NCBI GenBank assembly: GCA_903922465.1
Contig: CAIXTV010000021.1
Span: 91 to 64,090, forward strand
Direction: 5' to 3'
Source of the DNA: an uncultured bacterium
GTDB taxonomy: Bacteria; Bacteroidota; Bacteroidia; Bacteroidales; CAIXTV01
Length of the DNA: 64,000 nt
In this document: piece after piece, positions 36,734 through 50,829 of the stretch
Numbering within the stretch: position 1 is the stretch's first letter
Layout of the letters: every line of letters begins with the position of its first letter
Translations under genes and position numbers: made by a program
Notes under the pieces: generated by a model
The model's database searches: none
The model's input: only the letters and a program-made list of their open reading frames with translations
Told to the model about the DNA's origin: nothing

Positions 36734-37465
36734 CTAGGATTGATTCGTTAAACACATCTTGAAATTCTCATAAACAATATAAGCTACTTTTTCTATAGAG
36801 ATGTCGTAGATTCGTGCTAACTCGAATAACGTGTTTCTAGTTAATAAAGGGGAGGATATTTGATTTCCTATTCGTGTAAATGGTCCATCTGACTCAATTA
36901 GCAGTCTTTGTAGTGGAATGTTTCTAATAATTTGAACTCCTTTATTAGATTTAGTCATTGAATAATTTACTGAAAAATAATATCCATTATTAATAGCCCT
37001 TTTTAATTGAAGGGTACTTCCAGAATACCAATGCAAAACAATAGTGCCTGGAAAATTGTCTCCAATTATATCGATAACATCTTTTTCAGATCTCCTAGAA
37101 TGAATAGTTGCTATTTTACCCCCTGAATCAAAACACTCTTTTATAATTGAAATAAATATTTTTTTTTGTAAGCCTTTGTCAATTTTACATGCATAGTCTA
37201 AACCTATCTCTCCAATATATCTTGTCAGTATGAGATATTCTTTAAATAATGCCAAGTCATTTGGTCGGTCATTTAAAACTTCAGGATGATACCCTAATGC
37301 TGGTCGAATATATTTTAATCCTTGAGTTAATTGATAAGTAAGTTTAAAAACTGAAGGCGCGTTTGTTACAGCTATTGTGTAAACTTTTTTTTCTTCAATA
37401 AGCTTAATAATTTCTTTAGGATTATCCCATAAATCTAAATGAAAATGAGTGTCAATCAAGTTCAT
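36734..37465 (-). CDS. qatD: QatD, TatD-family metal-dependent hydrolase
   Basis: MNLIDTHFHLD start typical of TatD. It is the last gene of a KAP / QatB / QueC-like / TatD four-gene unit. Confidence 0.85.
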   Translation of the reverse strand: MNLIDTHFHLDLWDNPKEIIKLIEEKKVYTIAVTNAPSVFKLTYQLTQGLKYIRPALGYHPEVLNDRPNDLALFKEYLILTRYIGEIGLDYACKIDKGLQKKIFISIIKECFDSGGKIATIHSRRSEKDVIDIIGDNFPGTIVLHWYSGSTLQLKRAINNGYYFSVNYSMTKSNKGVQIIRNIPLQRLLIESDGPFTRIGNQISSPLLTRNTLFELARIYDISIEKVAYIVYENFKMCLTNQS

Positions 37466-37467
37466 TA

Positions 37468-38808
37468 CTAAACTGTTTTTAATAAAAAATCACTAACCTC
37501 CTTCATTCCTCTTTTGTAAACATCAATGTATTTCGATAATTCTTCTGCATTTGAAGGAATAGAGCCTGACTTTAATAAATCAAAAATTAAAGGCTTTTTA
37601 TTTGAGGATAATCTTGAAAGTGCAATTTTAAAAGCGATTATGTCTCTTGATGATTTTTCATAAGAAATGAATCCTCCTGATAATACATCTCTAACATAAT
37701 TTCCATTAAAACAATCAATTGCAGCTTTTTTCATTGCGGCTCTTCTTATTATACAAGGAGTACAATGCCCACAATGTTTTTCTTTTTTATGAAACCGTTG
37801 AACATATAATCCGGCTTTAGAACAAGAAATTGTTTTAAGTGCATGTTTTTTGATAAAATCAATATTATTTGACTCGATAATCATTTCACCTTTTGTGCAG
37901 AATCGATATGGATTAATTAACTTATTATTTATTCCTAAAATTTCAAATAGAGCATTTATTTGTTCAATAAAGAATGGATGTGTTGTCTTTGTACTATGAC
38001 TACCATTTCTAGTTTTTGTTAAAGGAATATTCAAAGAGATTAATCCATTCTCGGGGATTATGATAGGAATCTCATTACTGTATGAATTTGCTACAGCTAA
38101 ACCTAAAGCGATAAATATTATAGACCTTGCTCTTTGTGAAGTTTCACCCAAACTATCTTTTTCTTTTAGCGCTTGTACATAAAAATAATTAGGGCTTATA
38201 GTGCTATCTGGATATTCCGTTTTCAATAAATCTATTAATTCTTTTTGCGAAGATAAATCTCCGCTATTTCCTCCTTTGTGATGACTTACAAATGCAATAC
38301 TATTTGTCCCATTTTGCAATAAATCAACTGCACCAATAAAAGAATCTAATCCACCTGACAATAAACAAACTTTTTCAATGTTATTTTCTATTCTATTAAA
38401 ATCATCATAGATAAATTCTCTTTTTCTAAAATATAATTCCCATTTATCACCACTTAGAAATGAAAGAAAGTTTTCAATATGAGTTTTTGATTTATTCCAT
38501 TTTTCAATATCTGCTACTGGTAAGTAAACCTTAAAATACCTGTTCCAGCTAAAATATCCAAAATATTCTCTTGATACCATCTGGTCAAAAACATATATCC
38601 CTAAACTTAGATTAATAAAATCAATAGCATTTTCAGAAGGAGACAATTTTTCTTTTGTAAGTTCAGACAATATGGAATAACTTACATATTTTTCCTCATG
38701 AAGGTTGTAGTTTCTATAAGACGAAAGGTAATGTACTTTATTTTTACTATTCTCCTCAATAGAAAAACTATCGTCTTTGTTTTCTTTTATAATTATGTTA
38801 AAAATCAT
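37468..38808 (-). CDS. qatC: QatC, QueC-like PP-loop ATPase
   Basis: PP-loop CLLSGGLDSFIGA and C-terminal Cys cluster CGHCTPCIIRR. Confidence 0.85.
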   Translation of the reverse strand: MIFNIIIKENKDDSFSIEENSKNKVHYLSSYRNYNLHEEKYVSYSILSELTKEKLSPSENAIDFINLSLGIYVFDQMVSREYFGYFSWNRYFKVYLPVADIEKWNKSKTHIENFLSFLSGDKWELYFRKREFIYDDFNRIENNIEKVCLLSGGLDSFIGAVDLLQNGTNSIAFVSHHKGGNSGDLSSQKELIDLLKTEYPDSTISPNYFYVQALKEKDSLGETSQRARSIIFIALGLAVANSYSNEIPIIIPENGLISLNIPLTKTRNGSHSTKTTHPFFIEQINALFEILGINNKLINPYRFCTKGEMIIESNNIDFIKKHALKTISCSKAGLYVQRFHKKEKHCGHCTPCIIRRAAMKKAAIDCFNGNYVRDVLSGGFISYEKSSRDIIAFKIALSRLSSNKKPLIFDLLKSGSIPSNAEELSKYIDVYKRGMKEVSDFLLKTV

Positions 38809-39641
38809 AATGCTTCAATTAGTGAGTATGCTTGAATAAAAATTTCATCCATTATTGCTTTGCCTGTATCAGAGCGATAATCAAAAGTTGTCAGGTTGTA
38901 ATCATCAAATTTTAGATTTACCGAAGATTGAATAAAATCGAAGGCATTCTTTTCTGCCTTTACAACATCAGCCGGGTTTATGTCCTTTTCCTCGATTTTA
39001 ATTCCTAATTCCTGTAGCCATCGTTCGTAGATATATGAAGTCAGGTAATACTCCAAGTAGGTTTCTGTTTGCTCCTCAGTTAAATTATCAAGAGCTTCGA
39101 TGGAGTTATTTTCAACGTCAAAATCTTCATAAATTTTTGCTAAAGCTTCAACAACTGCGTTTCTGGCAATAGTTTCTTCATCTGTTCCACCTCCAGATGA
39201 TAATACTTCGGCCAAATTATTGAAAATATGCTCAACACTATCCCCAGAGATCTTTCCAAAACCAAACTTTTCATATGTTTTATTAAGACCGTCATTTCTT
39301 ATATCATTTAAGAATGATATAAATTGGCCAGCAACAATTTTACCATGTCTTGCACTATTTGCAATGTTTCTTGCACCTCCTGATGCTTTTACATAAGCTT
39401 TAACAGCACGTTTAAAATTTACTTTAGATGGATTATTAGAAAAATTACCTAATGACCTTTTTGCACCAGACCAAGTACCTGTTAACGGAATTACGGTATT
39501 TTGATTGTCCTGATTTTGGTTTTCTGTATTATTATTTCCATCATTTGGATTAACAGAATTGTCATCCTTTTCATTGTCAATCCAATCTGGCAAAAGAGGT
39601 GTATTCCCTTTTGGTCCAGCATTTGAAGAAGAAGTTCCCAT
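38805..39641 (-). CDS. qatB: QatB
   Basis: A 278-aa protein with a low-complexity N/D/Q-rich N-terminus, between the KAP ATPase and the QueC-like gene. Assignment is by position in the conserved qatABCD order. Confidence 0.65.
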   Translation of the reverse strand: MGTSSSNAGPKGNTPLLPDWIDNEKDDNSVNPNDGNNNTENQNQDNQNTVIPLTGTWSGAKRSLGNFSNNPSKVNFKRAVKAYVKASGGARNIANSARHGKIVAGQFISFLNDIRNDGLNKTYEKFGFGKISGDSVEHIFNNLAEVLSSGGGTDEETIARNAVVEALAKIYEDFDVENNSIEALDNLTEEQTETYLEYYLTSYIYERWLQELGIKIEEKDINPADVVKAEKNAFDFIQSSVNLKFDDYNLTTFDYRSDTGKAIMDEIFIQAYSLIEAL

Positions 39642-39644
39642 ATA

Positions 39645-41525
39645 TTATATATTCTTTTTAGCAATAGCAGCAAGCATTTTATTTTCTGATTTTGACCATT
39701 TCGTAATAAGACTTTTTGTCGTTTCTGCGTATGTTGATTCTTTCGTTGCTTTAATTATTTCGGGTATGACAGCCGGCCCTATAACGATTGAAGACATGTT
39801 ATCTAAAAATGCAAGAAGTTCGGATAATAATTCCTTTTTATCCTCGGTCATTTGAATCAATGTTTTTAAATATGCATTGATTTTGGTTTCATTATCTTCT
39901 TGCTTAATTTTAGAACAAAGAGAGGAAAATATTGAAGCTGAATCGGCATTTGAAATTCCTTTAATCTCTTTCAAAGCCTTTCTAACGAAAGCAACACTTT
40001 CACTAACTAAGTTTTGATAAATTTCCTGTGCCTGCGAACTCATTCGAGAAGTTTCAGAGGTAATAACACCTAGAACATCTCTGGAAAAATAGAAATATGG
40101 TCTTAGATCAATGTCACTTAATTTAGGCTCTATTTCAAACCATTTATTAAACCATTTTTCAGCGATTAATAATTTCACATCCAATTTTGAATCTTTACTT
40201 GCTTTTGCCGATTTATCTTTAATAAGGGTTTCGGCATATTTAATTTCTTTTGGACAGCCTTCTTGCTCTGCTTGAATACCCGAAAGCGTTCTAAATGTTT
40301 CCGGTTTAAAGTACTCTAGCAGCATTAATTTTGCCAATACTTTTTTCTGTATCTCCACTCCTTTGCTTTTTGCCATTTGCAATCTTAGCAAAAGCATGTT
40401 TAAAAAACGCTTACATTGTCTAGGATTTCCGTTTAATCCTACTGTTAAAAGATGTGTTATCTGTCCTGATAAAATTAAATCTTCTTTGAGTTTTTCTGGT
40501 ACTGATTCGTCTTTAATAAATTTAGAAATAGTATCGCTATTTATTACAGAGGAAAAAAGTTCTTTCCTTTTATTTTTCATTACCTGACTCCGTAGGCTTT
40601 CAAATTCTTCTGAATCGATACTCAGTTTGCAAAATAAAAGATTAATGTATGTTTCCATTTCAAGATTATCCATAGGTGGTATCCGTATTGGATATTGAAT
40701 TAATTTTTCAAGATAATCCCTGCCAACTTCAGCATTTGCTCCTTGAATTTCAGGAAACCGTTTCCTTACAGCATACTTGATAAGCCTATCATCCGCACAT
40801 ATCACAAAAGTTGATTTTGGCACAAACAAAAAAAGTTTTATCGCTTCTAAAGTTGAGATAACAGTATCAGGTGTACAACGGTCTAGGTCATCAATAAAAA
40901 CAATCAATCTGTTTATTTTAGTTTCGCTTAATAAACTTTCAAAGTTTTGATGAAATTCGCGTATACCTGTTTGAAAAGTATTATTAGTATTTTCTGATTT
41001 TTTAATGCAATCTATCAGTTTGTCATACTCTCCATCACTAAAATTATCAGCCAATTCAGCAATATTGCCTTTAATTGTATCTTTATCAACATTAAGCAAA
41101 TCTTTTATCCCTAAAGCAATGTTCCCTATGCCACCTGTGAGTAAATATGCTGCTCCATGAGTTGCGGCTGATTTAGCAATCTTCATCCAGTCTATCTGCT
41201 TATAAAGTTTAATTGCAATTTTCTTTGCCTTTGCTGAAAAAGTTTTTTTCTTTATTATTTCTTCTAAAATTGTTCTGATTAGAACAGACTTTGCATCATC
41301 ATAACCTTCAAAAAGCCAACCATTAAATTTAATTGTAAGAACATCAGTTTTATCTTTGTAACTTTCTTCAATCATTCTTAATAGACTTGATTTTCCACTT
41401 CCCCAATCACCATAAAAACCAATAGTGCATGGAACCAGATTATCATTATTTATAATACTAATTGTAGTATCAACCAAATGAGAAAAATCTATCAAATCGA
41501 TATTTGTATCGTTATCGTTCCACAT
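39645..41525 (-). CDS. qatA: QatA, KAP-family P-loop NTPase
   Basis: Walker A is GFYGDWGSGKSS. The KAP-type Walker B is LIVFIDDLDRC. Confidence 0.85.
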   Translation of the reverse strand: MWNDNDTNIDLIDFSHLVDTTISIINNDNLVPCTIGFYGDWGSGKSSLLRMIEESYKDKTDVLTIKFNGWLFEGYDDAKSVLIRTILEEIIKKKTFSAKAKKIAIKLYKQIDWMKIAKSAATHGAAYLLTGGIGNIALGIKDLLNVDKDTIKGNIAELADNFSDGEYDKLIDCIKKSENTNNTFQTGIREFHQNFESLLSETKINRLIVFIDDLDRCTPDTVISTLEAIKLFLFVPKSTFVICADDRLIKYAVRKRFPEIQGANAEVGRDYLEKLIQYPIRIPPMDNLEMETYINLLFCKLSIDSEEFESLRSQVMKNKRKELFSSVINSDTISKFIKDESVPEKLKEDLILSGQITHLLTVGLNGNPRQCKRFLNMLLLRLQMAKSKGVEIQKKVLAKLMLLEYFKPETFRTLSGIQAEQEGCPKEIKYAETLIKDKSAKASKDSKLDVKLLIAEKWFNKWFEIEPKLSDIDLRPYFYFSRDVLGVITSETSRMSSQAQEIYQNLVSESVAFVRKALKEIKGISNADSASIFSSLCSKIKQEDNETKINAYLKTLIQMTEDKKELLSELLAFLDNMSSIVIGPAVIPEIIKATKESTYAETTKSLITKWSKSENKMLAAIAKKNI

Positions 41526-41748
41526 AGTTTTAAAATTTCAAATTTATATTGTATATATTATAAGGTAATTGATATTGTTTTTTTGTATAAAAGGACCATA
41601 TTGAAGTTGCTGATTCTTTATGGGCTTGTTGCATTGAAAATTTTCCACAAATTTATAAAATTTATTTTAGTTGAGCCATATAATTTTATCCTTTTTTTCG
41701 AGGTCAAAAAACCAAATAAAAAATGGCATATGCATATCAAATAAGGAA

Positions 41749-44436
41749 TTATATAATGTTAAGTTTTTCTCCTCTTTTTTCGAATGCTTCTTTTCCACCT
41801 TCAAGTTTCAATAATTCTTCTCTATTTGTAGTATCCTCAATTGTCGTTTCGATTAATTCAGTTTGTCCAGATTCATTTTTTAATATAAAAATTTTCTCTG
41901 CATCACCATTTATTACAAAATTAGCGTTGTGTGTAGCAAATATAATTTGACGATCTGACTTTTTCTCTTTAAGTAAAGGCACAAGATAATTTGCAATCAA
42001 TGAGCTATCAAGATGTGCTTCGGGTTCGTCTATAATAAGCGGATAATTGCCAAACAAAAGCAAAATGACAACAACTGCAGTGCATCTTTGTCCAAAAGAG
42101 GCTTGCTCAACATCTTTGTTGTCGTATTTGACCCGAATTATTTTGTTTGTTTTTACATCAAACAAATGCTTATCCCTGATTACCTGAAATATCATAAAAT
42201 TCTTTTCGTCTTTGAATACTTCATCGAAAAACCTGATGTATTTTTTATCGCCTTTTTGTGAATTCTGTAAAAGCTGTGATATATCAACAAATGAATTTTT
42301 TGCAAAAGTTTGCTCGTTTTCGATTATAAAGTCACAAACTTCTTTGCTTCTTTCTGAATCACCATATTTTTCTTTAAATTTGTTGTAAAATTCATTTGCT
42401 AATGCGATCCAAGCATTTTTTTTGTCAAACGAATATTCCAAAGAAATTTGCTTAATATCTTTACCTCTGTTGTCATCAAACTGTTTTTTTAGTAAATTTT
42501 GCAGAGGCATTAATATTTCAGTTATTTTATCTTCATAATTCTGTTTATCCGTATTTAGTTCATTAACAACACTATTATGCGTTGCCATTATTTTCCTTTT
42601 TGATTCTATTTGACCAATTATATTTTTTATTTCACCATCTAAATTCGTAATTTTTTGTGGTGCAGATTTAATTTGTTCAACACTCTCAGGTGTATACCCA
42701 GCTTTTTGAACCAATATCATAGCCTCATTTTCTAGATCGTTTAAGGCTTTTTGGATTGTTGCTTCTTTTTCGGTTTCCTTAATGAATTTTTCTTCCTTCA
42801 ATAACTCAATGGCTTCTCCAATCTTAATTACAGCAAGGTTATAAGCTTTTTCGTATTCTGTTTTTTCATTTTTATCAGTAAGGTCATCCGATTCAGATTC
42901 TGGAAGCAACTTTGATAATAAATCTTTCAGTTTAGAAATATTGTCTTTCCAATCTAATAATTTTTGTAATTCTTTCGATTTATCAGTAATACCAGAAATT
43001 GTTTCATTGTACTCTTTACTTGATAAAACTTTGACACTACTTTCAAGGGTTCTTTTTTCTTTTTCTTTTGTTTCCTTTGTGTATTCAAGTGTTTTTAAAT
43101 CTGAAACAGCTAGAATAATTTGATTAAGCTTCTCTTTTAATGTTTCAATTACATCTTCATATTCTTTCAAAATATTACCAGCATGAGCGTTAGCTCTATT
43201 GTAAATTGCCTGTGTAAATTTTGATTTGTCTTTTGCAAAGGTCTCTATTTCACTTTGCGCCAAGAACTCAAATATTTCCGTTCCTGAGAAAGAAAAGACA
43301 TTTTTATCATTTAGATCAAAAGATGGAGCTAAATCCTTCCAGAATTTTTTCGGTGAATCAGGATTACTAGAGGATAAACCTAAAAAATTTAAAATTGTAC
43401 TTTTCCCCGAACCTCTTCCACCAATAAAGCAATTGAAATATGGACTTAAATCGTAAGATTTATTATTGCCAGCAAAACAAAATTTGTCTAAACCAACTTT
43501 TGCGTCAGCTGGTATTTTTAAATTAATCGCATTAATCGTATTTATTGGTTTTTTAGGTTTTTCTTCACCAATATAAATTCTCGTTTCAGGTTCGTAAACA
43601 ATTTGTTTCAAACCCTCAAATGTAGGTTCAGCTTTGATCCAACAATATTTTTCAATCGGGTTAGAATCTTTATCCTTGAGTTTTCCGAGAGGATACTCTT
43701 GAGAATGTGAATCACTTCCTTTTATACAAACCTTTTTTCGTAAAAACCATTTCTTGAAGTCATCATGAGTAAATTTGGGTGTTCCGTCAGATTTTAAATC
43801 TGATTTCCATAAGAAAAAATCAATTTGTTTTTGTCTGGATGAACCAAGAATATCTGCCATTTTAATAAAATTACTTTTAATCCATCCATCTGAAATAGGA
43901 TCAATTTCATCAATGCCACCATATTCATCATAAGGAAGCCACAATAAATATTTTTCCTTAAATTTTACGTCTTTTAGCTCATTTAGTAGAAATTCAAGAG
44001 ATATTTTTTTATCTTTCAGTTTGGTTTTATCGTCATAGTCTGTACTAATTATAGTCCCATTGCTTTTAAGCCCTTTTATAAGATTTTCAATGTCTGCAAT
44101 ATTAATTTCATTATCAAATATTATATGAAAATTGAAATGTATTGCACTATTTGTTTTTGTATTTTTATTCTGTACACTTTCAGTCATTCGAAATTCAACA
44201 ACAGGCAGTATTTTTTTATCCCCAATATTCAGTTCCCCTCTTTCAATTTTTTCTTTGATTTGTTTATAGCCTGCAACTGTAAAATAATCATTTATTCCGA
44301 TAACATCACAATTAGCATCTTTTAGTTGTGTTTCAAATTGTTCAAAAGTACCAGAAAAGCCATCAGATGCAGGGCTATGAATATGCAAATCCCATTTTCT
44401 CCATTCTGATCCTCTTGAATATTTTATGTTATTCAT
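41749..44436 (-). CDS. PHP-domain phosphoesterase fused to a Rad50/SMC-like ABC ATPase with a long coiled-coil insert
   Basis: N-terminal PHP motifs are WRKWDLHIHSPASD and IKGSDSH. Walker A is FIGGRGSGKST (about aa 339). A ~300-aa K/E-rich coiled coil follows. The signature-like motif is ASFGQRC, Walker B is LIIDEPEAHLD, and the H-loop is FATHNAN. Confidence 0.75.
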   Translation of the reverse strand: MNNIKYSRGSEWRKWDLHIHSPASDGFSGTFEQFETQLKDANCDVIGINDYFTVAGYKQIKEKIERGELNIGDKKILPVVEFRMTESVQNKNTKTNSAIHFNFHIIFDNEINIADIENLIKGLKSNGTIISTDYDDKTKLKDKKISLEFLLNELKDVKFKEKYLLWLPYDEYGGIDEIDPISDGWIKSNFIKMADILGSSRQKQIDFFLWKSDLKSDGTPKFTHDDFKKWFLRKKVCIKGSDSHSQEYPLGKLKDKDSNPIEKYCWIKAEPTFEGLKQIVYEPETRIYIGEEKPKKPINTINAINLKIPADAKVGLDKFCFAGNNKSYDLSPYFNCFIGGRGSGKSTILNFLGLSSSNPDSPKKFWKDLAPSFDLNDKNVFSFSGTEIFEFLAQSEIETFAKDKSKFTQAIYNRANAHAGNILKEYEDVIETLKEKLNQIILAVSDLKTLEYTKETKEKEKRTLESSVKVLSSKEYNETISGITDKSKELQKLLDWKDNISKLKDLLSKLLPESESDDLTDKNEKTEYEKAYNLAVIKIGEAIELLKEEKFIKETEKEATIQKALNDLENEAMILVQKAGYTPESVEQIKSAPQKITNLDGEIKNIIGQIESKRKIMATHNSVVNELNTDKQNYEDKITEILMPLQNLLKKQFDDNRGKDIKQISLEYSFDKKNAWIALANEFYNKFKEKYGDSERSKEVCDFIIENEQTFAKNSFVDISQLLQNSQKGDKKYIRFFDEVFKDEKNFMIFQVIRDKHLFDVKTNKIIRVKYDNKDVEQASFGQRCTAVVVILLLFGNYPLIIDEPEAHLDSSLIANYLVPLLKEKKSDRQIIFATHNANFVINGDAEKIFILKNESGQTELIETTIEDTTNREELLKLEGGKEAFEKRGEKLNII

Positions 44437-44446
44437 AATTTTATCT

Positions 44447-45640
44447 TTATAATTCTAATTTAGTCTGAATATCATTTTTTTCAATAATATTCAACTCCCC
44501 TTTAAATGCCCTTTGGCTTAAACTACCAAACAAATTTTCCAATTCCTGTAAACTGTTTTTGTATGAGTCTTTAAGTGTTTCATTTTTTATTACAATAGTG
44601 GCAAATTGATTCTGAAGTTCAACAGGTGGTAGTTTAATTTTTATCTTTTTAATTATTGTTAAGTTTAGTCCATCCATTATTGCACCTTTCACCTTATTGC
44701 TCATTTGTCTGATAATTAAAGGATGGCTATGGAATGCATAAGCGATAAAATATGGATTTGCGATTTTCTTGTCTAATGTAATGGCAGCTAAATGCTTTGA
44801 ATTTATACAAATAGGAATATTGTCTGGTACAACTGCAGTTCTCCCAAGCGTTGCCATTATCGAGATTAAAACATCATTTGGGTAAACTTGGTATCTTTTA
44901 AGTTCTTGAAATTTTTCAAATGTTATACATCTACTTCTTTTCCAATCAAACTTATTTGTAACAACATTGTCAATTCCTAAAACCTTTACATCACCTGATT
45001 CTGTAAATTCACTATGAAGTAAACTACTCCCAAATGGACCAGTTCTCATACTTCCTTTTTTCTTATCTGCAAATTCTTCGAATTTTACCTCATCCCATTT
45101 AATAGTTTCTGGATTTGAATAAAACATTTCCAAAAAAGTACTTTTCAAAAATTGATCAAGCATAGAAATGCCTTGTCTGCGTAATTCGATAAGTATTTCG
45201 GCTTTGCTTAAAATATTAGCTATTTTGATTTGATCTATAAAAGGGACTGATGGAATTTCTAATTGTTCCAAAGATTTTCTATTAATATGCTGAATGGTTG
45301 CACCTGTGGATTTTCTTTTCAGGAATACGGATTTTGTTTGTAGAAATTTATAGATAAAAAAAGGCGAAAACTCTTTCGGGTTTTTCACCCTTACCCGAAC
45401 AATCGTGCTCCCAACATATCCTTTTTTCCCAAAGCCCATTTGTCCAACAGAACCGTCCCAAACAACGAGTATGTCATTTTCATTTGTTAAAACTCCTTCA
45501 GTATCCAAAGTGTATTGTGGCTTGTTCTCATTCCTAAAATCGTTTGCTTGAAATACTCGAGTAGCACCTTCCTTAAATTCATCAAGTAAGTCATACCCTT
45601 TTCCTTTCTCTATTGATACAATATCTTTTAAAATAGTCAT
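44447..45640 (-). CDS. hsdS: Type I restriction-modification specificity subunit HsdS
   Basis: 397 aa with two target-recognition halves separated by conserved helices (ILSKAEILIELRRQ... and LQELENLFGSLSQRAFKGEL). It overlaps hsdM by 4 nt. Confidence 0.85.
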   Translation of the reverse strand: MTILKDIVSIEKGKGYDLLDEFKEGATRVFQANDFRNENKPQYTLDTEGVLTNENDILVVWDGSVGQMGFGKKGYVGSTIVRVRVKNPKEFSPFFIYKFLQTKSVFLKRKSTGATIQHINRKSLEQLEIPSVPFIDQIKIANILSKAEILIELRRQGISMLDQFLKSTFLEMFYSNPETIKWDEVKFEEFADKKKGSMRTGPFGSSLLHSEFTESGDVKVLGIDNVVTNKFDWKRSRCITFEKFQELKRYQVYPNDVLISIMATLGRTAVVPDNIPICINSKHLAAITLDKKIANPYFIAYAFHSHPLIIRQMSNKVKGAIMDGLNLTIIKKIKIKLPPVELQNQFATIVIKNETLKDSYKNSLQELENLFGSLSQRAFKGELNIIEKNDIQTKLEL

Positions 45641-47205
45641 TGGATCAAAGGTTTTATTTCTTCTAAAGCAGACTGGATACTACCTTCAATCTTTACTAAT
45701 TTCCCGAAAATCTCTTTTGGTTTTTCGTAAATTACTTCTTCATATTCTTCTACTTTATATGTACTTAAATTCAAATCATAATCATTTTCTACAATTTCCT
45801 TTTTACCAACAAAGAAATATTTGTTTTTTCTATCAGTATCTGTTTTATCGTTTCTTATTTTATATTTCTGAACAATATCAGGCAAATCACTTTCGTTAAT
45901 TTTACTTCGTTTATCATCTAAAGTATATCCGTCAGCTTTCATGTCGTAAAACCAGACATTAGTTGTTTCACCACCTTTTGTAAAAATCAAAATAGCAGTG
46001 CTTACACCTGCATAAGGTTTAAAAACTCCACTTGGCATTGCTATAACTGCTTTTAATTCTGACTTTTCAACTAATAATTTCCTTAATGCTTCAAATGCTT
46101 TACCGGAATTTTGAATTACGCCTGAAGGTACAATAACTGCAGAAGTTCCACCTACTTTTAGCATATTAAAAATACGTTCTACAAAAAGCAATTCTGTTTT
46201 TGTAGTTGGTAATTTTAACCCTTCGTTTATATCGCCTTTGTCAATATTACCAGTGAATGGAGGATTTGCCATTATAATATCGTACAGATTATCCTCATTG
46301 AAACTTTTACTGAGTGTGTCTTTATAATCAATTCGAGGTTCATCAATACCGTGCATCATTAGGTTCATCAAACCTAAGCGGACCATTGTAGTGTCAATGT
46401 CAAAACCAAACATGCTTTGCTCTAACATTTTCTTTACCTTATCTGTAAGTATCGCACTCATGGTTGCACGTTCAAAACCATCTTCGTCTTTTATTAATTT
46501 TGATGGGTCGGTTTTACGCACCAAATCAGTTAGAATATATTGATAATATCCTAAAATAAAACCACCCGTGCCACTACTGGGATCTGCCATTCGCTGACCT
46601 AATTGTGGTGCAACCAATTCAGACATAAGTTTAATTATATGTCTTGGAGTTCTGAATTGCCCGTTCTTTCCTGCTGTTGCGATTGCACCTAAGAGCATTT
46701 CATAAACATCACCTTGAATATCTTGGAATGCTTGACCTCCTTCAGTTGCATCTTTTTCAATTTCAGTAAATAATTGCTCAATTATATTTATTGCTTCTAC
46801 CAATAAAGAAGCTTTAGGCATAATGAAAACTGCATTTGCCATATGTTTAGTAAATGGGGAAGTGTCCCCGTTCAATTCTTTTAGAAATGGAAAGACTTTG
46901 GTTTGCACGTGTAATAACATTTCATCGGCAGGTCTACGTTTAAAATTACTCCAACGCAATTCATTTTTATCCACTTCTTCATTACTTCCGGGTGTTTTAA
47001 ATTTACCGCTAAATCGTGATGTGTATTTTTCACCAGTGAATTCAGCATCTCGCTCACGTTTGGTTTCTAAATCATCCAAACGTTTCATGAAAATTAAATA
47101 AGTTATTTGTTCAATTGCTGTAAGTGGATTTGCAATTCCCCCACTCCAAAAATTGTTCCAGAGCTTTTCTATAAGAGATTTTATTTTTGAGTTATTTTGT
47201 AGCAT
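45637..47205 (-). CDS. hsdM: Type I restriction-modification N6-adenine DNA methyltransferase HsdM
   Basis: Motif I is ADPSSGTGGF. The catalytic motif is IIMANPPFTG. Confidence 0.92.
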   Translation of the reverse strand: MLQNNSKIKSLIEKLWNNFWSGGIANPLTAIEQITYLIFMKRLDDLETKRERDAEFTGEKYTSRFSGKFKTPGSNEEVDKNELRWSNFKRRPADEMLLHVQTKVFPFLKELNGDTSPFTKHMANAVFIMPKASLLVEAINIIEQLFTEIEKDATEGGQAFQDIQGDVYEMLLGAIATAGKNGQFRTPRHIIKLMSELVAPQLGQRMADPSSGTGGFILGYYQYILTDLVRKTDPSKLIKDEDGFERATMSAILTDKVKKMLEQSMFGFDIDTTMVRLGLMNLMMHGIDEPRIDYKDTLSKSFNEDNLYDIIMANPPFTGNIDKGDINEGLKLPTTKTELLFVERIFNMLKVGGTSAVIVPSGVIQNSGKAFEALRKLLVEKSELKAVIAMPSGVFKPYAGVSTAILIFTKGGETTNVWFYDMKADGYTLDDKRSKINESDLPDIVQKYKIRNDKTDTDRKNKYFFVGKKEIVENDYDLNLSTYKVEEYEEVIYEKPKEIFGKLVKIEGSIQSALEEIKPLIQ

Positions 47206-47208
47206 TAT

Positions 47209-48030
47209 TTATTTTAATTTCTTCACATTAGTATTTGATAATAAAGAGTTCATTTGAGTTATAGCCATTTGATTCAATTGTATCAATCTTTGGCTTTGTG
47301 GTAAATTCTGATGTATCAGCATTGCATTTATACTTTCTAAGTTTGAAAGCACTACCAATTGTTCAATTGTAGCATAATCTCTAATATTTCCTTGTAAGTC
47401 AGGATTTTCAGTTCTCCATTCAAGAGCTGTCTTTCCAAACAAAGCCATATTTAGCATATCAGCTTCGTTTGCATATAAAAAATTAATTTGAGATTTGTTT
47501 AATTCAGGCGGAATTAGTTTTTCTTTAATTGCATCAGTATGAATTTTGTAATTTACTTTTGCAAGTGTACGTTGAAAGCTCCAACCTAATTTTAATCTAT
47601 CATTTTCATCTTCCTTAAGCCTTTGGAATTCTTTTATCAGATACATTTTAAATCCGGGACTTAACCAACTACCAAATTCAAAAGCAATATCTTTATCCGC
47701 AAAAGTACCGCTGTTATATCTTCCTGCTTTGGCTATAATTCCTATAGCATGCGTTTTTTCAATCCATTTCTTAACTGATAGTGTAAAACGATTAAGACCC
47801 GCTTCATTTTTAATTCCCTCGAATTCGGGGTAATTAAAATTGGGATTATTTATCTCTTCCCATATGCCAATAAATTCAATGGTATTTTTGTTGCGCAACC
47901 ATTTCTCAATCAAAGAATGCCCATCTTCAAAACCTTTAACCATGTCAGTTAAAGATATAAAATCAGAATTTTTGTGTTCAATGATGGTTATTTCTGACCC
48001 TTTTACAATTATTGTTTTCTTCTTTGCCAT
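47209..48030 (-). CDS. KilA-N domain protein inserted between hsdR and hsdM
   Basis: GSEITIIEHKNSDFISLTDMVKGFEDGHSLIEKWLRNKNTIEFIGIWEEINNPNF is the typical KilA-N/ORF6N N-terminal region as I recall it. Confidence 0.65.
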   Translation of the reverse strand: MAKKKTIIVKGSEITIIEHKNSDFISLTDMVKGFEDGHSLIEKWLRNKNTIEFIGIWEEINNPNFNYPEFEGIKNEAGLNRFTLSVKKWIEKTHAIGIIAKAGRYNSGTFADKDIAFEFGSWLSPGFKMYLIKEFQRLKEDENDRLKLGWSFQRTLAKVNYKIHTDAIKEKLIPPELNKSQINFLYANEADMLNMALFGKTALEWRTENPDLQGNIRDYATIEQLVVLSNLESINAMLIHQNLPQSQRLIQLNQMAITQMNSLLSNTNVKKLK

Positions 48031-48031
48031 A

Positions 48032-50829
48032 TTATGCAGCGATTATTAATTCTGTGAATTTTAATATTTCTTCAATCTCATTAGGATTAAATATTCCTCT
48101 TATTCCTTCGGGATGAAGTAAAGTAAATGGTGATTCAATGAGGTTCCTTTTTGTTAGTTTTTCGTTTTCAATAATGTACTTACGCAGTAAATCTAAGAAT
48201 TGTAATTGCCGACTGGTAAGGTATGAATGTGCTGTAATAAAAGTATCAAAGGCTTTGGAAACAGTTTCAGGAAATGATTCTAATATTTCAATTCCAAGGA
48301 TATGTTTGATGAATTGCACCAACTCCGCCTTACGATGATTATATACTCTTCTCAGTAATTCTATTGTAATGTGTGGATGTTCATTATGCAATGCTTCAGC
48401 TAATTGTTCCGCTTCATTGTGTGAAATCTCTTTTCCTTCTTTTATCCTTTGTAGAATAGAGTTTTCCATAACCATTTCATTAACTTTCTGCTCAACTAAT
48501 TCCCTATATTTTGCAACGCTTAACGCTTCATGTTGTGGTCCAAATTCAACATATTCTTTCTCACTCACAATATCTTTAAAATTGAATTTTGCGGGTCCAA
48601 GTGGAATGACTGATTCTCGATATTTCATGAGTGGGGAAATTTTTTGAATCAGTTCATCAAATTTCTCTTCACTAATAGTTGCCCAATAATGATTCGTCTG
48701 TGCTTTTTTAATTAGTTCTTCTTCTTTAGCAACAACATTGATACTTAAAGGAAGTTCCCCAATCTCTTCAATAATACTATCTTTAATTGTTTCAAATTTT
48801 TCCTTCTCCTCTGATAAATGAGCCAAAGAAACTTCCACAATATCTTTTTCAAATCGCATTGCTTTAAAATCAGTATCAGAAATTGTTCTGAAAAGTGGTT
48901 TAATAACTGTTCGAAGAAACTCTATTTTTTCCACGGACAAATTATTCCAAAAGTTCCCATCTTCCAATCTTTGCATCTCATGTTTTGCCTCCATTATTAC
49001 GATGGAATTCTGAGGAAGGCTATTTATTTGTGCTCTAAGCTTTTGAATTTCTTTTTCAGTTATTTCATTGCAGTTTAATTCAATCGCTTTTTCTATTTTT
49101 TCTAAGCGAACACCAAACAACCTCACAGGTAATGGGATTTGTGGTTTTAGTTCTTTCCCTCTTGGATTAATTTTAAAATATTCAAAATTATCCCAACAAT
49201 CAAGAATTAAGAATTCATCTTTTTTTGTGCACCATGGTTTTATTTTTTCAGTTTCAAGTAGTCTGGTTCCTCTACCTATCATTTGCCAAAACTTGGTATA
49301 TGAATATACAGGTTTTGCAAATACTAGATTTGTTAATTCCCTGACATCTATTCCTGTATCGAGCATATCTACACTTATTGCAACACGTGGCATATCATTA
49401 GAAACAAATTGATCAAGCAAGCCACCTTTACCATATACTCTAGGGTCTTCGCTAACAATTACTTTTGCTAATTCTCCTTTGTATTCAGGATAAAGAGAAT
49501 CAAATATTTCTTCCACTCTTCTTGCATGAGCTTTACTAATGCAAAAGAAAATTGTTTTTCCTGGCAATACACCATTGCTATCTTTGATAGACTCTTCCAT
49601 GAATTCCCGAACTATCAATGCATTTGTTCCCCTGTTAATTACTTTCTTCTCAATTTCAGTCCCCTCGTAATTAATTTCTTCGATCTCTTTTCCTTCAAGT
49701 ATCAATCTTTGTTGGTCTTCTAAGGAAATTGTTCTTTTACTAATTCCTTCATCCTGAAACTTCGTTTTAATTTTCATTACCTGAAAATTACAGAGATAAG
49801 GAGGAATATTATTTACTGCTTCATCATAAGAATATGCAAATGTTGGAACTCCATCTTCACATTCAAACAAATTGAATGTATTATGGTCAATAACATCTGT
49901 TGGAGTTGCAGTCATACCAAGAGTAATGGTGTTGAAATAGTCTAATATTTCCTGATAAGTATTATAAATACTTCGATGACTTTCATCTACAACCACCAAA
50001 TCAAAGAAATGAGGACTTAAAGGTTTATTCTCATCTCGAATTATGTTTAGCATGGTAGGATAAGTAGTAACATAAATCCTTCTATCAGTTGTAATATCCT
50101 TTTCACCTTGCTTTGGCCATCTTGGTTCATTAGGTAAATATTCTTTAAACACATCAAGAGTTTGTTCTTTTAAAGAAATTCTATCCACTAAAAACAATAC
50201 TCTTTCTGCCCAACCTGCTCTCATAAGTGAATCAACAAGGGCTACACAGGTTCGTGTTTTCCCAGTTCCAGTTGCCATCACTAATAAAAACTTTCTTTTT
50301 CGTTTCTCAATGGCTTCCATTACAGCACGGATACAGCGTATTTGATAATCCCTTCCAGCAACCTTAGTGTTTATTAATTCCCCGGCTAGACTTTTACGTG
50401 CTTTTCGAATATATATGAATATCGTTCAAGATCATCTCGAGTTGGAAAACCGTAAACTTTTTTAGGTGGATAGTTTTCTAAATCCCAAAAATGTATTTCA
50501 TATCCATTGGTATAAAAGCAAAAAGGAAGTTCCCCTCCATGTTTTTTTTGGATGTTATAACAATATTGCTTTGCCTGTTCACGTCCAATTGCAGCATCAA
50601 CAGATGTCTTTTTTGCTTCAACCACAGCAATTGGTTTTCCATCTTTTCCAAGTAATACATAGTCACTGAACTGATGACCAGAATATGGATTTATTGCTTC
50701 CTGAACTTTTTGAGAATCAACAATAATATCAAATTCTTCCACTACTTGGGTTTTATCAGAAACATTCCAATTAGCTTGTTTAAGCCTTTTATCGATTATT
50801 TCTTGCCTTGTAAGTTTTTCAGTTTTCAA
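48032..50829 (-). pseudogene. hsdR: Type I restriction enzyme R subunit HsdR, split by a frameshift near 50389-50410
   Basis: ORF 50386-50829 is the HsdR N-terminal nuclease-type domain (TRQEIIDKRLKQANWNV). ORF 48032-50320 is the SF2 helicase part (LVMATGTGKTRT, VVVDESHR). The helicase frame stays open upstream to about 50405 as ARKSLAGELINTKVAGRDYQIRCIRAV, one frame off the N-terminal ORF. Confidence 0.8.

Follow-up and report, generated by a model that had tools for sequence, protein, structure and literature searches.

What is a gene that joins a PHP phosphoesterase to a Rad50-like ATPase doing at the end of a type I restriction-modification (R-M) operon? The question is raised by contig CAIXTV010000021.1 (assembly GCA_903922465.1) of an uncultured bacterium of the Bacteroidales, of which we analysed a stretch of 64,000 nucleotides (the window). 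The gene, trlF, ends a type I R-M operon that lies on a mobilisable defence island of this Bacteroidota genome. A first-pass annotation, made from the sequence alone, had cast it as a candidate guard of the PrrC/RloC type and had called its function unknown. We find no new system here but a defence gene of a known kind: a member of the TrlF family, the sister of the anti-phage protein family Ppl. Our preferred reading, to which we give a probability of about 0.6, is that it encodes a Ppl-like, self-contained nuclease, a sensor of DNA ends whose expression goes together with that of the restriction genes. The gene and its parts are as follows.

41749..44436, minus strand: trlF, TrlF-family PHP phosphoesterase with SMC/Rad50-like ABC ATPase (895-aa open reading frame (ORF) and its translation; NCBIfam NF045780; AlphaFold2)
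43567..44436, minus strand: PHP domain, residues ~1-290 (conserved metal ligands, N-terminal model, PDB fold matches)
43228..43566, minus strand: N-lobe of the ABC head, residues ~291-403 (Walker A G339-T347, Q-loop Q394; Foldseek)
42469..43227, minus strand: coiled-coil insert, residues ~404-656 (long helices by DSSP, AlphaFold model)
41752..42468, minus strand: C-lobe of the ABC head, residues ~657-895 (Pfam AAA_21 and motifs)

We have little doubt that the gene is an intact TrlF family member. Its ORF is free of internal stops (the stop codon lies at 41749-41751), and the 895-aa product scores 442.7 bits (E = 4.5e-132) against the NCBIfam model NF045780, 'TrlF family AAA-like ATPase', for which the curated cut-off is 350. 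The alignment pairs residues 8-892 with positions 1-943 of the 944 in this hidden Markov model (HMM), and the whole-genome search gave the same result. The next-best NCBIfam models were Ppl (NF042955; 137.3 bits vs a cut-off of 1000) and then the Spaf_1101 family; the best PADLOC match was Ppl, at 109 bits.

The first-pass annotation had described a PHP domain followed by a split, Rad50-like ABC head, an architecture borne out by predicted structures and by the motifs; all of those it quoted were found, in the order it gave, and only the minus strand has to be added. On the PHP side these are DLHIHSPASD (residues 16-25) and GSDSH (240-244). The head carries the Walker A GGRGSGKST (339-347), the Q-loop Q394, the signature-like ASFGQRC (779-785, with SFGQR at 780-784), the Walker B/D-loop LIIDEPEAHLD (800-810) and the H-loop ATHNAN (834-839, H836), together with NGDAE and EGGxxAF; the Walker A and Q-loop columns are invariant across 37 homologues. 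The PHP metal-ligand positions (D16, H18 and H20 of the HxH, D50, E81, H104, and D242 and H244 of the DxH) are invariant or nearly so in the same 37 homologues, which are 41-82% identical to the window protein, and are common to Escherichia coli Ppl, so that the PHP motifs are indeed conserved. The Pfam PHP model is not significant on this protein; AAA_21, spanning residues 651-840, is the only Pfam match. We assign the PHP domain because of the full-length match to the TrlF HMM, the conserved metal ligands and the fold search with the N-terminal part.

An AlphaFold2 model of the full protein, built on the 37 homologues, reached a predicted local distance difference test (pLDDT) score of 87.4, and a separate model of residues 1-310 reached 87.9. 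The top 23 PDB matches of the N-terminal model are all PHP-domain proteins, the best being the TM0559 PHP phosphoesterase, the PHP domain of RNase AM and the PHP domains of Pol III alpha and PolC; the proposal that the effector is a PHP domain and not an anticodon nuclease holds on this evidence. Foldseek with the full model found the heads of SMC, MukB, Wadjet JetC, Rad50, RecN and PARIS AriA, with E values down to 1e-6. Searching PDB sequences with the family profile brought up nothing but a generic ABC transporter ATPase, and hence no structure of TrlF or Ppl. As proposed, a coiled coil divides the head; in the AlphaFold model it is ~250 aa long and not the ~300 aa first estimated. Its apex, at ~511-526, is of low confidence (the pLDDT dips at 514-522). 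A Rad50-like zinc hook, which structure prediction was meant to look for, is absent: the stretch between residues 336 and 701 is free of cysteine, hence no CxxC hook, and there is no conserved cysteine in the coiled-coil region across the alignment of 37 homologues.

In overall design TrlF resembles Rad50-Mre11/SbcCD, OLD, Gabija GajA, PARIS AriA and Lamassu LmuB, which also combine an SMC/Rad50-like ABC head and a coiled-coil insert with a nuclease; sensing of DNA ends is described for several of them (PMC13648713). It differs from them in its nuclease, which is a PHP domain fused in one chain and not Mre11/SbcD, Toprim or Cap4. It differs from Rad50/SbcC further in that a Pfam scan finds no Metallophos or partner-subunit gene in the operon, and in having no hook.

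A system called 'ppl' is said to go back to Gao et al. in 2020. The likeness of TrlF to Ppl runs over the whole length of the protein and takes in GSxWxKxDxHxH, GSDxH, Walker A, the coiled coil, S(F/P)GQ(R/K), DxPExxLD, NGDAE and EGGxxAF. Against a Ppl annotated by the Prokaryotic Genome Annotation Pipeline (PGAP) on an E. coli IncF plasmid, BLASTP aligned residues 9-355 and 767-892 collinearly; the best-conserved stretch lies in the C-lobe (29% identity over 133 aa, E = 2e-17), the overall identity is ~21%, and the lengths are 895 and 891 aa. With an HMM score far under the Ppl cut-off the window protein belongs to a sister family and is not itself a Ppl; to judge from these sequences, TrlF and Ppl are sister families of one architecture. 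A further difference is that the single Ppl locus inspected, that on the IncF plasmid, is standalone, whereas the clade of the window gene is mostly appended to R-M operons; no Ppl was found in 401 genomes of a tiny-genome bacterial class, and the context of Ppl given here is that of the one plasmid locus.

The mechanism of Ppl is taken here second-hand from two papers, PMC12904381 and PMC13648713, both of which cite Xu et al., Mol Cell 2026. In the account given by the first, Ppl is a single-gene anti-phage system whose PHP domain is a 3'-5' exonuclease on single-stranded DNA, inhibited by nucleoside triphosphates (NTPs) bound to the PHP and NTPase domains and triggered by the 3'-OH ends that phage homing endonucleases make (PMC12904381). 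The passage on Ppl in the second states that it becomes toxic once RecBCD is inactivated, as do OLD and Gabija (PMC13648713). To call the function of the window gene unknown was therefore too pessimistic, the family being named and its sister characterised (PMC12904381).

We turn to the surroundings of trlF across the family, using one survey of 80 species-level loci from GTDB representative genomes (flanks ≤10 kb) and a second, of 29 loci, drawn from 401 evenly sampled genomes of the phylum to which the window belongs. In the directly upstream gene (67 loci), Pfam found Methylase_S 10 times, N6_Mtase seven times, MmeI_Mtase and ResIII three times each, N6_N4_Mtase and GmrSD_N with HNH twice each, and DUF2130 six times, in Helicobacter. 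With local HMMs, type I R-M genes were located at -1/-2 on the same strand in 14/67 species-level loci, at +1/+2 in two loci only, and at -4 in none. In all 12 loci where the gene immediately upstream is a co-oriented R-M gene, 8-42 nt separate its stop codon from the GSxW motif of TrlF (residue 9), compared with a median of 113 nt for co-oriented upstream genes of other kinds. The arrangement of an R-M operon followed by trlF is recurrent and tight.

This arrangement is concentrated in one part of the family. A tree of 100 TrlF proteins places the window gene in a 20-member clade dominated by metagenome-assembled genomes (MAGs) of Patescibacteria (≤81% identity), not nested with the TrlF copies of its own phylum. 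Within this clade 15 of the 18 evaluable loci are linked to R-M and three are not (two more could not be evaluated); outside it 10 are linked and 61 are not, the outside figure being partly undercounted owing to short flanks at some loci, and a Fisher p-value on the contrast being descriptive only. These counts include type II and MmeI/SNF2-type labels that were added after close relatives had been inspected. Linkage requires at least 12 changes over the whole tree. The contexts of the closest relatives, read from precomputed Pfam hits, are listed here with identity to the window protein.

P0009, 81%: HTH, HsdR, fused HsdM/S, TrlF
P0014, 81%: C protein, EcoRI-like methylase, GmrSD_N/HNH enzyme, TrlF; a type II (C-M-R) operon
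P0008, 80%: PLD/SNF2 helicase, MmeI-like methylase, TrlF, PDDEXK
P0031, 70%: PLD/SNF2 helicase, MmeI-like methylase, TrlF, PDDEXK
P0010 and P0015, 79%: no adjacent R-M

The link to R-M is real but independent of the class of R-M system. An operon orthologous to that of the window, with genes for R, M, S and TrlF, occurs at locus L008, where identity to the window is 58% for HsdM, 57% for HsdR, 46% for HsdS and 68% for TrlF; the nearest TrlF (81%) lies behind a type II system, unlike in this operon, from which we take it that TrlF is exchanged among restriction operons. The linkage to R-M on which the first-pass annotation had built is borne out as recurrent and operonic in the clade of the window gene; it is not tied to type I, and most of the family is unlinked.

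Most family members are not adjacent to R-M genes: they stand alone, as they do on enterobacterial plasmids by the hundred, or are paired with TrlG. TrlF scored above the cut-off in 28/401 Bacteroidota genomes and in 0/14 control genomes, and the family comprises 646 clusters at 50% identity (E ≤ 1e-30). A tblastn search with the window protein (E ≤ 1e-5) hit 1127 plasmid records, which include TrlF, Ppl and conserved ATPase-only matches; PGAP annotates TrlF, and also Ppl, among them. We inspected four TrlF loci on plasmids, and each is standalone, with Gabija-like genes, Abi genes or plasmid backbone genes next to it; standalone copies occur on plasmids of Klebsiella, E. coli, Yersinia and Burkholderia. 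TrlF occurred in 7/50,697 phage records. Neighbours in the surveyed loci are defence or mobile-element genes, among them Qat, GmrSD, Abi, SIR2 and type IV secretion coupling proteins.

The window gene is 80-81% identical to genes of Saccharibacteria/Patescibacteria MAGs (L005, L006) and lies outside the Bacteroidota TrlF clades, which indicates, at the level of sequence, that trlF was recently transferred between phyla. Among the relatives L008-L012, L016 and L017, some with a head 74-85% identical to that of the window protein have a PHP domain only 34-39% identical (L010, L012, L016, L017), and some with a head at 75-84% have a coiled coil at only 40-42% (L008, L009, L016); the coiled-coil insert is the most variable part among close relatives. 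PHP and coiled-coil modules thus appear to have been swapped by recombination. Such domain-wise mosaicism is typical of defence genes.

The family takes its name from the temperature restriction locus (TRL) trlR-trlF-trlG of Photorhabdus laumondii, in which the founding trlF is a large gene annotated 'histidinol phosphatase' (PMC7554251); RloF, considered as a source of the name, was rejected, as it occurs in a paper on the GmrSD family. The partner TrlG combines AlbA_2 with HATPase_c_4, and all temperature-tolerant mutants were in trlG and none in trlF (PMC7554251). The window gene shares with the founding locus the end-to-end match to the family HMM and the PHP plus ABC ATPase architecture; it differs in that it follows hsdS and has neither TrlG nor the small regulator trlR, both of which belong to the founding locus. 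In the Bacteroidota sample a TrlG-like AlbA_2/HATPase_c_4 gene is the commonest neighbour (9-10/27 loci), followed by type IV secretion coupling proteins and assorted defence genes, with R-M parts in ~5-6 loci. A TrlG-like gene lies directly downstream of trlF at L087, L089, L091, L099-L101, L104 and L109 (all Bacteroidota) and at L020. This suggests that TrlF and TrlG form a widespread two-gene unit, paired as in Photorhabdus. We saw no signal of exclusivity between TrlG and R-M: one of the 100 tree loci carries both type I R-M and TrlG labels, with ~2 expected.

Two further contexts recurred. At L033 (6509-9977) and L034, from Sulfurospirillum and Arcobacter, genes for an SbcD-like Metallophos protein and an 800-aa SbcC-like ATPase lie directly upstream of trlF and co-oriented with it, so that two Rad50-like ATPases are encoded consecutively. 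In Helicobacter pylori (L037, L040, L055, L070, L071 and L075; 6/6 recovered) TrlF has DUF2130 upstream, a formyltransferase downstream and no adjacent R-M.

In the window itself the operon order is hsdR-(KilA-N)-hsdM-hsdS-trlF, and the genes ahead of trlF are these.

44447..45640, minus strand: hsdS, 397 aa, type I specificity subunit (Pfam Methylase_S, E = 3e-28; PADLOC Specificity_I, E = 2.4e-69)
45637..47205, minus strand: hsdM, 522 aa, type I methyltransferase (Pfam N6_Mtase, E = 7e-57, and HsdM_N; PADLOC MTase_I, E = 1.2e-163)
47209..48030, minus strand: KilA-N gene, 273 aa (Pfam KilA-N, E = 8e-19; PADLOC candidate PDC-S22, E = 2e-132)
48032..50829, minus strand: hsdR, EcoAI/type IB-like, split (HSDR_N on the short ORF; ResIII and EcoEI_R_C on the long one)

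Pfam and PADLOC confirm hsdS, hsdM and hsdR as the first-pass annotation had named them, and the ATG of trlF does lie 10 nt past the TAA stop of hsdS, the spacer being agataaaatt; hsdM and hsdS overlap by 4 nt. On this spacing trlF is most likely co-transcribed with hsdM and hsdS. A promoter/terminator scan found no terminator between hsdS and trlF nor after trlF; sigma-70-like sites were fewer than in shuffled sequence, the sigma-70 consensus being of little use for a Bacteroidota host, and the RNA fold of the 3' flank of trlF was not significant (z -0.53). A frameshift divides hsdR into ORFs of 147 aa (nuclease domain; 50386-50829) and 762 aa (helicase; 48032-50320), and hsdM, hsdS and trlF are intact. 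In tblastn the intact HsdR of L008 matches frame -2 with its residues 5-143 and frame -1 with its residues 140-935, which places a 1-nt frame change at ~50410-50419; it may be real, phase-variable or an assembly error. The KilA-N gene sits between hsdR and hsdM with spacers of 1-3 nt and is missing from the orthologous L008 operon, so that we regard it as a separate insertion into the operon of the window.

Downstream of trlF a gap of 223 nt leads to qatA, whose product scores 560.6 bits with NCBIfam, just below the 600-bit cut-off, and E = 2.9e-149 with PADLOC. It heads a run of four genes in QatABCD order (36734-41525, minus strand) that adjoins trlF; qatA alone was scanned, and QatB, QatC and QatD are named after the first-pass annotation. 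Promoters of Bacteroidetes have the -7 consensus TAnnTTTG. The sequence TAAATTTG at 41648-41655 (minus strand), in the gap between trlF and qatA and ~120 nt upstream of the qatA start, fits it, and by this sequence match the Qat operon may have its own promoter rather than depend on read-through from trlF. The G+C content, ~30% over most of the window, does not set the R-M/trlF region apart. Membership of a MADS system was rejected, as the matches to mad2, mad3 and mad5 fell far below cut-offs and stem from generic homology of type I M/S and ABC proteins.

How, then, might TrlF act? Its patchy distribution, horizontal transfer, carriage on islands and plasmids and domain-wise mosaicism strongly suggest, as sequence-level evidence, a role in defence. 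The standalone plasmid copies and the two 79%-identical relatives lacking adjacent R-M argue that it is autonomous, and the repeated and tight attachment of the clade to several R-M classes suggests that co-expression with restriction is under selection. By analogy with Ppl, the ATPase head would dimerise and sense nucleotides and DNA ends; on phage infection, free DNA ends or lowered NTP pools would release the PHP domain to degrade DNA from 3' ends, which would stop replication of the phage and possibly the cell. TrlF would be self-contained in this, the restriction enzyme not being required. For the transfer of the Ppl mechanism to TrlF we see the odds as about even. An added step, in which restriction cuts would feed ends to TrlF and make it a second, type-agnostic layer behind restriction, is one we put forward only tentatively, although it would be the simplest functional account of the attachment. 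With a view to whether TrlF might replace an absent end-processing nuclease, RecB was sought in the host genome and in one genome with a related TrlF; the matches were sub-threshold and UvrD/AddA-like only.

Several points weigh against the reading of TrlF as a Ppl-like nuclease co-expressed with restriction. The identity of ~21% leaves the mechanism to be carried over from Ppl by analogy, and in the literature searched no TrlF protein had been assayed for phage defence or nuclease activity; the sole genetics on the family, the TRL growth arrest of Photorhabdus, maps to trlG and not to trlF (PMC7554251). That restriction supplies the ends is a hypothesis, weakened in the window by the frameshift in hsdR, with which this operon may make no cuts at all. 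Co-transcription with hsdS is read from the 10-nt gap alone. The linkage counts, finally, come from related, non-independent sequences, and the clade was delimited after the tree had been seen.

A possible objection is that trlF is an incidental neighbour, the 3' end of R-M operons being a permissive insertion slot with no relation to restriction. The contexts of TrlF are indeed very diverse (TrlG, Abi, GmrSD, DUF2130, SbcCD-like genes, plasmid backbones), linkage has changed on the tree at least the dozen times noted above, and TrlF and R-M genes have been exchanged independently, the nearest TrlF (81%) standing behind another R-M class than that of L008. Chance, however, would be expected to give a more symmetric and looser arrangement than the one observed, with 14 loci upstream and co-oriented vs two downstream and none at -4, and with 12/12 R-M junctions at 8-42 nt to GSxW vs a median of 113 nt elsewhere; linkage also reaches 83% in one clade across several R-M classes. 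Attachment to R-M operons exceeds chance co-location, and we consider the insertion-slot explanation doubtful.

The guard proposed in the first-pass annotation would work through contact: the type I R-M complex would silence TrlF, and an anti-restriction protein would release the PHP domain, here in place of an anticodon nuclease. Like PrrC and RloC, TrlF is an accessory ABC-type ATPase encoded within a type I R-M operon, and with RloC it further shares a long coiled-coil insert (PMC12707154). The position of trlF inside such an operon and the frequent, tight linkage in its clade are what a guard would lead one to expect; ABC ATPases can sense anti-restriction proteins, as do PARIS AriA and PrrC (PMC12707154), and the window protein has a weak, AAA_21-type match to the PADLOC AriA model (E = 3.5e-9). 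The differences are substantial all the same. The effector of PrrC/RloC is a C-terminal tRNA anticodon nuclease, and that of TrlF an N-terminal PHP phosphoesterase; Pfam, NCBIfam and PADLOC gave no AAA_13 (PrrC/RloC) or anticodon-nuclease match at E ≤ 0.01, and the CxxC hook is lacking. The association spans several R-M types, relatives at 70-81% identity standing behind type I, behind type II C-M-R with an HNH enzyme and behind MmeI/SNF2-type systems, and because such close relatives ride behind unrelated enzyme classes a contact-dependent guard is unlikely. R-M-linked and unlinked members are equal in length and layout, with no extra domain in the linked ones; most members have no R-M system beside them to guard; in the window hsdR is broken and trlF intact; and the sister Ppl works alone, as it is presented in PMC12904381 and PMC13648713. 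With no AAA_13, anticodon nuclease or hook, several R-M classes and many standalone copies, the guard proposal does not hold up well, and we regard it as improbable.

A third possibility is a stress- or temperature-triggered growth arrest of the TRL type, in which TrlF would act with a TrlG-like Schlafen/AlbA_2-HATPase_c_4 partner and not in phage defence. The family is named after the Photorhabdus locus (PMC7554251), and a TrlG-like gene directly follows trlF in ~10 surveyed loci, including the 9-10/27 of Bacteroidota. An HMM built from the TrlG-like neighbours, however, had zero matches anywhere in the 64-kb window, whose TrlF clade is linked to R-M and not to TrlG; the Photorhabdus phenotype lies in trlG, never in trlF (PMC7554251), and growth arrest is itself compatible with defence by abortive infection. 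For the window gene this is very improbable. Equally remote is a housekeeping repair role, as a single-chain analogue of SbcCD/Mre11-Rad50 that processes host hairpins and DNA ends: the head is Rad50/SMC-like by fold, a PHP nuclease could stand in for Mre11/SbcD, and TrlF follows SbcD-like and SbcC-like genes at two Campylobacterota loci, but a gene above cut-off in only 28/401 genomes of its phylum and in 0/14 model genomes, transferred between phyla, carried on islands and plasmids beside defence genes and devoid of a zinc hook hardly fits such a role.

Returning to the reading of TrlF as a Ppl-like nuclease, what gives it wider interest is that TrlF is a large and widespread family with a name of its own, and that its sister Ppl has newly been established as a sensor of DNA ends and of nucleotide depletion. 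The literature searched contained no description of the clade appended to R-M operons. That one TrlF clade sits on unrelated restriction operons leads to a testable idea, namely that restriction and an end-dependent nuclease cooperate. In its fullest form, which we offer as a long shot, the clade would be a restriction-coupled second-stage nuclease, selected to ride 3' of any R-M operon (type I, type II or MmeI/SNF2-type) because it takes the double-strand ends left by the restriction enzyme as both trigger and entry point. If this were true, R-M with TrlF would be a generic 'cut, then shred' unit of two layers, especially useful in the tiny-genome bacteria of the candidate phyla radiation, where the clade is concentrated, and an arms race with phage inhibitors would account for the hypervariability of its coiled-coil and PHP modules.

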